A stretch of DNA of 64,000 nt from Escherichia coli. Its GTDB lineage: Bacteria; Pseudomonadota; Gammaproteobacteria; Enterobacterales; Enterobacteriaceae. The stretch lies in NCBI RefSeq assembly GCF_003018115.1, contig NZ_CP027457.1; one strand, 5' to 3'. Position numbers: made by a program. Shown here piece after piece: positions 55,701 to 58,700 of the stretch; the first letter of the stretch is position 1, and every line of letters starts with the position of its first letter.

Positions 55701-58700
55701 AAGGGTGAGCGTGGTGAGAGGGGGCCGCAGGGGCTTCAGGGTGTGAAAGGTGAACGGGGAGAGAAGGGCGAAAAAGGCGAGCCGGGAGGACCGGATGCGA
55801 CGACGGCACAGAAGGGAATTGTGCAGTTAAGCAGCGCAACGGACAGTGATGATGAAACGAAGGCAGCCACCCCGAAAGCGGTGAAAGCGGCAATGGACAA
55901 AGCGGACGGATGCCTGGAGAAAGCGAAAAACGGTGACGATATCCCGGATAAGGTGCAGTTTCTGAACACTGTGGGAGCAGCCAGAGTATACGGGTGGGAC
56001 ATTCATACGGGGGCCGGTGAATGGACCACGAGCGAGTTTGTCGCCTGGCTGAAAGCCAAAGGGGCATTTGACCAGCCTTACTGGATGATGAAGGCATCAC
56101 TGCATGCGGGATTCAATAAGGTCATCACGGATGTCGGACCGGGAAAACTTAATCTGGGTGGCTGTGTCATTGAGGTGATGGGGAAGTATGAGGCAGCCAT
56201 AGTCCGGGTCACCATTGGCGAATACGGTGCAACGGGGTTTATTAATGGCACGGTCTGTACCTGTACGGTTTACGGCGACACACAGTATTTCCACTGGCGG
56301 GTGGATTACAGCACAAAAAACAAACCGGATACGGTCAGCCAGCGGGATGCCAGCACGACGCAGAAAGGTGTGGTGCAGTTAAGCAGTGATACTGGCAGTA
56401 ATGACGAAACAAAGGCAGCCACGCCGAAGGCCGTGAAGGCGGCAATGGATGTGGCAAATGAAGCGAAAACAAAGGCAGAAGAGGCTGCAGCAGGAGGTGG
56501 TGTTCCCGGTCCGAAAGGAGATAAAGGGGACACGGGGCCGGCAGGTCCGGCTGGGCCGGGGGGCCCTCAGGGACCAAAGGGGGATACTGGCGCTCCCGGG
56601 GCAAAAGGTGAGAAAGGAGCCACCGGCGCAACCGGGCCACAGGGAGCAAAAGGGGATAAAGGTGATCCCGGCCCTCAGGGACCAAAGGGGGATACTGGCG
56701 CTCCTGGGGCAAAAGGTGAGAAAGGAGCCACCGGCGCAACCGGGCCACAGGGACCAAAAGGGGATAAAGGTGATCCCGGTCCCCGGGGGGCAACAGGCCC
56801 ACAGGGACCAGCTGGCTCACCGGCAGGTGGTTTGCATGCTGTTGGGGCATTTGTCTTTGCTCAGGCCAGTATAAGTAACAGTGAAAAATATGCCGCAGGT
56901 GCCGTGCTTGCGGGAAGTAAACTGAGAGAATGTAGCATTCAACTGGGCTCTCAGAAAGCAGCCACATTAACCGGTAATACACTGCCAGGAACATGGCGGG
57001 TCTGTAGTCCACTTCAGGTCAGTTCAATATATCCTTACTGTGTGGGGCTGTTTCAGCGTATATCGTGAAGAGAACGACGGCAGTCAGGTGGGAACCGCCA
57101 GTGTAGCACGGTAAGGGGCAGGAAACGCTGAGCAGTGCAGATGAGATACAGGCATACAGGGGGGAGAAATAACAGACAAAAAGATGGGGGACCATCACCT
57201 CCCCCATGAACTGCGTTGATTATGTCATTATTGTGAAGGTATTCATTATGCCGGGTAAATAGTGCCACGGAAAAGTTAATTCCGGAAGTGACGGAACTCT
57301 CATTTTTCGTGCATCCTGTTGATATGGATGATTTTTCATATTTCCGGAAGTCCGTATTTTGCCCGGGCGCGGTTGCATGCTTCATTCGCGATGCCATTTT
57401 CTCCGGACATTGCAAATTCCCGGCATGTGGACGGACGGTTTTTGTAAACAGAGCAATATGCGTTTTCACCCGGAGTTCCCGCCAGAGCGACACATCGGGG
57501 ATTTTTCTGACTGGTGCCGCGCATACAGCGATGAAAGGGGGATATTTGCTCAGTGAGACTGACCGGAACCTTTCCGCCAGCATCGTCAGCTTCTGCCCAG
57601 TAAAAAGAGACGCGGAAAAATGCACAACAGGCACCACACGTCATGCATGGATTCGGATTGTTCATTTTTATACTATTTGTTGTTTTTTCAGCGATCAGTT
57701 CAAAGGACGCTGAAAAAAAACATTCTCCAAAATTAAATTATAACTATTTGATTTTATGGATAGAGGCATGCTTTTTACGCAAAAGTAAAAAGCATGCCAA
57801 ATTTGCTATTAACTCTTTGAATATTCAGCACTAATCATCTATTTCGGTTGCCTTCTTATTCAGCAGACGAGAAGCGCGCCAGTAAACCAGCAACATCAGG
57901 CCCATTACGATAGTCAGCGTAATGCTGGTGGCTGCACCAAACGGCCAGTCACGAATATTGAGGAACTGTACCTTGATGACGTTACCGATCAGCAGGTTTT
58001 TCGCACCGCCCATCAGGTCGGACACATAGAACAGGCCCATCGCTGGCAGCATCACCAGCAGACATCCGGCAATAATCCCCGGCATCGTCAGTGGAATAAT
58101 GATGCGGATAAAAGTCTGTAACTTGCTGGCACCGAGATCGCGCGCCGCCTCAAGCAACGGCTTATCCAGTTTTTCGATACTGGAGTACAGCGGCATCACC
58201 ATAAACGGTAGCAGAATGTAAACCAGACCGATAATCACCGCACTGGGCGTGAACATGATACGGATTGGTGTGTCGATAACGCCCAGCCAGAGCAAAAACT
58301 CGTTGAGATAGCCTTTGGTGCTGAGGAAAATTTTCAGCCCGTAGATGCGAATCAGTGAGTTGGTCCAGAAGGGAACAATCAGCAGAAACAGCAGCAGCGG
58401 ACGCACCTTGTGTGGCAGCTTCGCCAGAAACCAGGCAAACGGGTAGCCCAGCACCAGGCAGGCGAGAGTGGCGATCAGCGCCATATTCAGCGAGTGCAAT
58501 AGCACTTCAAAATAGAGCGGATCGAGCAGACGCGTGTAGTTATCCAGCGTAAAGACCATTTTGACGAAACTGGCGTCGTCGCGGGTCAAAAAGCTGGTGC
58601 CAATGATCATCAGGTTGGGCAGAAAGACAAACAACACAAGCCAACCGACAATAGTGACAATCACTACATTCTGGAACTTACTTGTGTTCTTCATCAGCCA

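Follow-up and report, generated by a model that had tools for sequence, protein, structure and literature searches.

The stretch of Escherichia coli DNA considered here (64,000 nucleotides of contig NZ_CP027457.1, assembly GCF_003018115.1; hereafter the window) carries a prophage whose right end abuts the gene potB. Positions 57069-57862 very probably represent the right terminal segment of a member of a lambdoid prophage family with a lambda-type integrase and excisionase (Int/Xis), together with its right attachment site, attR (P arm, core and potB). The junction is an ordinary and widespread attR that has already been annotated, and the family of integration sites to which it belongs is already known. 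A preliminary description of this DNA had called the junction unusual, because the tail fibre gene is not followed by a tail-fibre assembly gene (tfa), a cargo gene is present and a perfect palindrome lies next to potB, in a pot operon that was thought to be truncated. These features are normal for the phage family that uses the potB/potC site, in which sister prophages carry varied cargo in the same slot; the only unusual point is that the prophage is a hybrid after a large inversion. For the attR junction itself, there is essentially no evidence against this interpretation.

The position of the junction emerges from a comparison of four sites: the uninterrupted potB-potC locus of K-12 (attB), the window (attR), the junction between tandem prophages in strain RM10809-3 (attP-like) and the int-potC junction of strain FORC_041 (attL). 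A 12-bp sequence, CCTTCTTATTCA, is common to the K-12 attB, the window attR and the RM10809-3 attP, and the FORC_041 attL differs from it by one mismatch. This sequence is present as a single copy in the window, where it separates phage DNA from host DNA. Mapping against K-12, as the preliminary description had advised, thus places the boundary between prophage and chromosome at this 12-bp core, inside the last potB codons and 53 bp beyond the palindrome. The palindrome, which had been suggested as part of an att or recombination site marking the breakpoint, does lie inside an att arm, but it is not the breakpoint. The 760-bp segment between the fibre gene and potB is absent from K-12 and is phage DNA (a tfa-like relic, a ykgJ paralogue and the lambda-like P arm of attP) rather than the ordinary conserved chromosome that had been envisaged as the alternative. 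The attachment site and its host flank are composed as follows.

57851-57862: common core CCTTCTTATTCA, 12 bp, the crossover region, from the four-junction comparison
57831-57850, minus strand: phage-encoded 3' end of potB, (..A)TEIDD and a stop codon, from the junction comparison and translations
57831-58694, minus strand: potB with a hybrid 3' end, followed by potA, pepT, roxA and phoQ
57666-57852: A+T-rich stretch, 30% G+C
57724-57732, plus strand: arm-type repeat TCTCCAAAA of the P arm, a candidate site for the N-terminal domain of Int
57765-57798: palindrome GGCATGCTTTTTAC-GCAAAA-GTAAAAAGCATGCC, with perfect 14-bp arms and a 6-nt loop
57683-57718: second perfect inverted repeat, with 11-bp arms (TTTTTTCAGCG/CGCTGAAAAAA) and a 14-bp spacer, just outside the outermost arm-type site

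The core coincides with the potB codons for L-N-K-K and, in attB, also with the ribosome-binding region of potC. Integration swaps the last four native potB codons for six phage codons and a stop, in frame: PotB ends in ..LNKKVELE in K-12, in ..LNKKATEIDD in the window, in ..ATEIDN with O157-type arms and in ..VSELDD with the HM670-type arm. The substitute tails of all three arm types are short and acidic, as is the native tail. On these translations, potB, which the preliminary description had taken for the end of a truncated pot operon, is repaired by the phage arm and not truncated, and PotB with the ATEIDD tail presumably remains functional. In K-12, the start codon of potC overlaps the stop codon of potB, and integration at the core therefore severs potCD from the pot promoter. 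In the usual lysogens (FORC_041 and HM670), potC lies directly 3' of int and in the same orientation, and potCD would have to be expressed from the int side. Neither potC nor potD is present in the 64-kb window, because the prophage and the inversion discussed below separate them from potAB.

Phage 21 and e14, in icd, and many phages integrating into tRNA genes enter a gene at its 3' end, for which they carry a replacement. The potB/potC phages resemble those of the phage 21/e14 type in having their core in the 3' end of a host gene, the in-frame ending of which is restored by the phage arm. They differ from them in that only four codons are swapped, for six unrelated but similarly acidic ones, and in that the downstream genes, potCD, lose their promoter. 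A Shiga toxin (Stx) phage site named potC, disrupting potAB-CD and used by phages with one integrase type, has been published (PMC9453080). As far as the accessible part of that source goes, the site and the integrase type of its O113:H21 Stx2a/Stx2d phages are those described here, and several of its strains (00-3076, RM10466, '4' and EH41) are among the matches for the window junction or the fibre tip. The site is given in that part as potC or as a disruption of potAB-CD, whereas the crossover is placed here in the last potB codons, with potB repaired by the phage; the window prophage also differs from the phages presented there in its yecE-type left end. In a set of 5426 complete E. coli genomes, the exact 1-kb junction was found in 66, with the annotation 'tail fiber / YkgJ family / PotB'. 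The P arm (at least 84% identity) was found in 683 genomes, including O157:H7, O145:H28 and O111:H8, and the P' arm with an int of the 372-aa type in 1634.

The cognate integrase of the potB/potC site is a protein of 372 aa with an arm-binding domain; its full-length identity to lambda Int is 35% (E = 3e-62). The xis gene, for a protein of 89 aa, overlaps int in RM10809-3 and FORC_041. The same int and xis lie beside potC in uninverted lysogens, and the cognate Int/Xis are encoded at the other prophage end in FORC_041, HM670 and vB_EcoS-640R1. They are not found at the other end of the window prophage, which carries a yecE-type integrase; the attR of the window is genuine, but it has been orphaned by rearrangement. 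An arm-binding tyrosine integrase, the overlap of xis with int and the prophage order int...J-stf-attR are shared with lambda. Lambda differs in the sequence of the core (CCTTCTTATTCA here) and of the arm site (TCTCCAAAA here), in its target, a gal-bio intergenic site rather than the inside of a protein-coding gene, and in having no counterpart of the 34-bp perfect palindrome of the P arm; the cognate Xis has only marginal similarity to lambda Xis (E = 0.008).

Putative arm-type sites are repeated in both arms of attP. The P' arm has two copies of TCTCCAAAA and one of TCCCCAAAA, as direct repeats with a spacing of 11-13 bp, located at 48-80 bp on the int side of the core, and the P arm has a single TCTCCAAAA about 127 bp from the core on the side away from int. 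This layout (three direct arm repeats on the int side, at ~+48 to +80, and one at ~127 bp on the other side) has its equivalent in the lambda record. The P-arm copy of TCTCCAAAA is invariant in all eight arm variants (8/8), and its distance from the core is unchanged in the HM670-type arm, which is otherwise unrelated. The bare 9-mer occurs three times in the window against 0.5 expected, a count reached by two of 100 shuffles, and is thus not strongly over-represented; the case for arm sites lies in the clustering of its copies in the att arms. Homology between arm variants, including the partial variant of strain A8, starts just outside the outer arm repeat, and the functional P arm would therefore extend over ~57718-57862, with the palindrome inside it. 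When both arms were inspected by eye for IHF consensus sites, only imperfect matches were seen.

Several other observations concern the attachment site. In the O22:H8 strain RM10809-3 (locus L002, 6000-8400; window coordinates are obtained by adding 50999 to those of L002), two prophages are arranged in tandem at potB/potC, and the ykgJ end of one runs into the int and xis of the next, providing a natural attP sequence. In strain E2865 (locus L010, 1501-1860), a P arm of the potB type with the palindrome lies beside espK at another locus; in this relic, a damaged core (CCTTC---TTCA) joins the arm to a tfa fragment, tRNA-Ser and hyaA. The second inverted repeat, 57683-57718, is bordered by runs of T and of A and abuts the outer arm site, the position that tI of lambda occupies relative to P1, and it has no 3' U run. 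It was considered as a tI analogue or terminator and rejected, the T run being 5' of the stem on both strands and the repeat not being kept in O157-type arms. An open reading frame (ORF) of 63 aa (57643-57834, plus strand) with a hydrophobic N-terminus covers the whole P arm, antisense to the start of ykgJ; it has no family match and is broken by indels in relatives, and is probably spurious. A search of 56800-58200 against Rfam with a permissive E-value returned only three matches at chance level (E 0.47-0.79, far under the gathering scores). A resemblance to an NsrR-like operator was also considered and set aside.

The palindrome was initially reported as a 13-bp inverted repeat, 33 bp downstream of the potB stop codon. 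A perfect palindrome is indeed present at 57765-57798, but its arms are of 14 bp and its loop of 6 nt (13-bp arms with an 8-nt loop are a subset of this), and the gap to the stop codon (57831-57833) is 32 nt. The phage P arm contains it at a distance of 53-86 bp from the core, and no other perfect inverted repeat in the window has arms of 12 bp or more with a loop of 3-10 nt; 20 block shuffles gave none. When folded, either strand has a minimum free energy of about -22 to -23 kcal/mol, with z-scores in a 91-nt context of -4.3 (minus strand) and -3.7 (plus strand), and no extended stem was seen in the 91-nt fold. The attP-like junction of RM10809-3 contains the palindrome as well. Both of its GCATGC cores are invariant in the eight arm variants, which supports some selected role. 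The O157 and CD45 types have one or two uncompensated changes in the left arm, together with a loop change, which contributes one more base pair and leaves the energy at about -18 to -19 kcal/mol. The palindrome is located 3' of int across att, and integration shifts it from the int transcript to the transcript of the interrupted operon, potAB'.

The sequence points tentatively to a role at the RNA level, in which the palindrome would form a protective hairpin at the 3' end of a transcript or a partial barrier. Any transcript crossing att towards ykgJ would meet a stable stem-loop without a U tract: in the free phage, this would be the read-through transcript of int, and in the lysogen, the potAB' transcript. 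The hairpin would be neither an efficient terminator nor a recombination site. A number of observations weigh against such a role. There is no U tract after the hairpin on either strand (the tails are UCUAUCCAUA on the minus strand and AAAUUUGCUA on the plus strand), and a terminator scan made no call there. No true compensatory double changes are seen in the stem, and invariance is as high in the right arm and in both unpaired flanks as in the stem, a pattern that fits a binding site at the DNA level equally well. The P arm of HM670-type phages, which have an identical Xis and a near-identical Int, has an unrelated, unstructured sequence with no hairpin. As this arm works without it, the palindrome is apparently dispensable for the phage family, and it is probably not needed for recombination. 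It is quite improbable that the palindrome and the phage potB tail together constitute a portable 'transcript-end cassette', which in the free phage would end or destabilise the int read-through RNA, as sib does in lambda, and in the integrated state would provide the 3' structure of the repaired potAB' mRNA, gating read-through into ykgJ or effector cargo; if so, one hairpin would serve phage transcripts and then host transcripts.

A possible though unlikely alternative to this RNA-level role is a DNA binding site in attP for the excisionase, the arm-binding domain of Int or an accessory bending protein. The palindrome occupies the interval from the outer arm-type site to the core, in which the Xis, Fis and IHF sites of lambda are found, the bases flanking the two GCATGC cores are invariant along with them, and a 12/14 copy of one half (GGCACGCATTTTAC) is present in the P' arm beside the three arm repeats. 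However, the HM670-type arm, which is used with the same Xis (WP_000003742.1) and an Int of the same family, retains TCTCCAAAA, TTGATTTT and the core-proximal block, but not the palindrome. The half-site in the P' arm is kept in HM670 despite the absence of the palindrome, so the two do not co-vary, and chance alone would produce several 12/14 matches over all position pairs in 500 bp. This third half-site was thus too weak to be retained as evidence for a binding protein.

An intrinsic terminator capping the interrupted potAB' operon, as first proposed, is improbable. The hairpin is G+C-rich, with the inner half of the stem rich in A/U; its 14-bp stem is strong and begins only 32 nt past the new potB stop codon, and host transcription would, without a terminator, run antisense into the late genes of the phage. 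This proposal is weakened by the lack of a T run and of a scan call reported above, by the location of the canonical terminator after ykgJ, at 57207-57174, and by the absence of a hairpin here from the HM670-type sister phages. A retroregulator resembling sib/tI of lambda, which would by analogy target int mRNA arising by read-through from pL for decay from its 3' end until integration separates the two, is distinctly improbable: in the attP junction of RM10809-3, as in lambda, a perfect inverted repeat is found beyond att on the int-sense strand, on the side away from int (here ~200-235 nt past the int stop codon), and is parted from int by integration, and the tI hairpin of lambda (11-bp perfect stem) lies on the same side, abutting P1, but tI has T6 and is outside the arm sites, whereas the window hairpin has no U tract and is inside the outer arm site, its 14-bp stem is short for RNase III, and it is absent from HM670-type phages.

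Upstream of the P arm, the right end of the prophage is occupied by the following features.

50628-54374: J gene
54404-55066: lom
55218-57068, plus strand: side tail-fibre gene, 616 aa (ORF with Pfam domains phage_tail_N, Collagen and Phage_fiber_2)
57113-57172, plus strand: DUF4376 tfa-like relic, the last ~19 codons and a stop codon (homology to sister prophages, translations)
57174-57207, minus strand: intrinsic-terminator-like site, an 8-bp G+C-rich stem followed by CTTTTTGTCT (terminator scan)
57336-57665, minus strand: ykgJ paralogue, 109 aa (PF03692), separated from the fibre stop codon by a gap of 267 bp

The minus-strand gene of the YkgJ family, noticed from the outset as co-oriented with potB, is confirmed as a full-length member of PF03692, the CxxCxxCC family (E = 5e-12; 46.8 bits, for a cut-off of 23; profile positions 1-85 of 85), and RefSeq annotates it as a YkgJ family protein; PHROGs has no family for it. 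Its product is identical to K-12 YkgJ at 91 of 109 aa (83%; 81% at the nucleotide level), and the homology ends at the start codon. By these comparisons, it is a paralogue of the chromosomal ykgJ, carried as a cargo ('moron') gene and encoding a putative metal-chelating domain. In sister prophages, the gene is frameshifted or only its first ~37 codons are left, as expected of a dispensable passenger gene. The terminator-like site is located 129 nt 3' of the ykgJ stop codon, and is likely to be where any potAB'-ykgJ or ykgJ transcript really ends. A scan of 56900-58100 for promoters of the sigma-70 type found none; a perfect TATAAT identified by eye on the minus strand (57742-57737) was considered as a ykgJ promoter, but it has no usable -35 element and is not claimed.

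Sequence derived from ykgJ has been described in lambdoid prophages under the name 'attB-in-PP_2', a sequence with homology to the intergenic region between ykgJ and ecpE (Nakamura et al., 2021; PMC8112680). The window resembles attB-in-PP_2 and the exchangeable effector loci in having ykgJ-homologous DNA at the right end of a prophage, in a cargo slot between fibre and att. It differs from attB-in-PP_2 in that the homology is confined to the coding sequence of ykgJ and does not extend beyond the start codon, the upstream DNA being a P arm of the potB type. With blastn at a word size of 7, only the ykgJ coding sequence was aligned, and the sequence upstream of K-12 ykgJ is unrelated to 57666-57850; the segment is thus not an attB-in-PP_2. 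The possibility that the P arm or the palindrome derives, like attB-in-PP_2, from K-12 DNA lying between ykgJ and ecpE was rejected, as no homology was found. Remnants of ykgJ are present at the right ends of ~50 records of Stx and other lambdoid phages with other integration sites (for example, LC567842 Stx2_12E129_yecE and AF151676 P-EibE), either as the N-terminal ~35 codons, at 60-65% aa identity, or as the 3' end. Canonical yecE phages have a 102-bp 3' fragment of ykgJ beside a DinI-like gene.

The fibre protein consists of an N-terminal prophage tail-fibre domain, collagen-like Gly-X-Y repeats, Phage_fiber_2 repeats and a tip of ~95 aa. Only residues 1-500 are covered by phrog_366, and the tip (56778-57065) has no PHROG and no match in a tblastn search of phage records; in a protein database of ~5.8 billion clusters, it matched only near-identical E. 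coli fragments, and its DNA is present in 35 of the 5426 genomes. Duplications of 108 bp in the collagen repeats (56562-56788) cause the length of the gene to vary between strains, from 616 to 652 aa.

The statement that the fibre gene ends at 57068 with no tfa after it holds in that there is no intact Tfa or DUF4376 ORF (no plus-strand ORF of at least 40 aa in 57069-57287), but it overlooked the 19-codon relic at 57113-57172. The relic reads KGQETLSSADEIQAYRGEK and stop, its counterpart in strain JNE151685 being KDLESLSSADEILVYRVGWAQE and stop. Homology to relatives bearing DUF4376 starts at 57113-57121, the left edge of a conserved 'ykgJ-P arm' module. The relic implies that an ancestor had a tfa-like gene here, which was displaced by a different fibre module. 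Comparison with sister prophages identifies the region between fibre and att as a variable cargo slot of the phage family. It contains DUF4376 and/or tfa genes together with ykgJ in strains PS2C, DEF10 and JNE151685, DUF4376 only in strain A8, espK in O157:H7, an nleG-like gene and other effector-like genes in Stx1a_10012 and CD45, and a methyltransferase gene with tfa fragments in HM670.

The hybrid nature of the prophage is apparent from its two ends and from an internal change in its affinities, defined by the following features.

10859-12145, minus strand: left-end integrase, 428 aa, abutting yecE/yecN and different from the 372-aa potB/potC integrase
49400-54000: crossover interval, with a Stx1a phage resident at yecE to its left and a phage resident at potB to its right, from the pattern of single-nucleotide polymorphisms (SNPs)

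The left end is thus at yecE, a known Stx-phage site. Its flank, argS-yecM-cutC-torYZ-cmoBA-yecN-yecE, runs in the reverse of the K-12 order, and the right flank, potB-potA-pepT, in the K-12 order. Positions 10000-34900 are 100.0% identical by BLAST to the yecE Stx1a phages of W24 and 2012C-4431, and 34901-50595 are 99.47% identical to W24, the differences including many indels in the W24 assembly. In bins of 500 bp, there are 0-1 substitutions each relative to W24 from 43.0 to 49.5 kb (two in total), followed by 12-27 per 500 bp; the stretch from ~54.0 kb to the end has 0-3 substitutions per 500 bp relative to the potB phage of FORC_041. This pattern suggests that the prophage, 10859-57862, arose by recombination of a Stx1a phage resident at yecE with a phage resident at potB, the two having crossed over at ~49.5-54 kb. 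In uninverted genomes, the yecE and potB prophages are in opposite orientation, and a crossover between them therefore inverts the interval corresponding to 1.184-1.952 Mb of K-12 (~768 kb). The source genome would accordingly have potCD ~768 kb away from potAB', and a reciprocal junction, potC-int ... DinI-yecD, is predicted. With non-cognate att sites at its two ends, the Stx1a prophage should be unable to excise precisely by means of either integrase, and is probably locked in place. A crossover inside ykgJ, of which yecE phages carry a 3' fragment, was considered and rejected, as the SNP patterns place it near 49.5-54 kb.

It is very improbable that the prophage with one yecE end and one potB end is an artefact of assembly across near-identical late regions. 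Late-region identity between the two phage types is 96-100% over many kb, a situation that classically gives rise to misjoins, and it counts against a genuine hybrid that no genome of the collection has the same arrangement and that the parental strain is absent from it. Nevertheless, the orientation is exactly that expected from recombination between inversely oriented prophages, the inverted interval is roughly symmetric about the terminus, the SNP pattern switches cleanly near 49.5 kb, and W24 has an analogous hybrid, with yecE on the left and ompW on the right. In W24 (locus L014, 23400-25200), the same yecE Stx1a phage ends at a truncated ompW and yciE, not at yecD, which constitutes another rearrangement between prophages.

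The understanding of lambdoid integration is unchanged by this junction, and the role of the palindrome is a small question. For annotation and for the typing of Shiga toxin-producing E. coli, it is relevant that the Stx-phage site called 'potC' in fact consists of a 12-bp core within the final potB codons, and that the phage repairs potB on integration. The slot between fibre and att is a position for cargo, occupied by ykgJ, espK, nleG-like or tfa-like genes according to lineage. The Stx1a prophage of this strain is bounded by non-cognate att sites and is probably locked, which bears on the mobility of the toxin gene.

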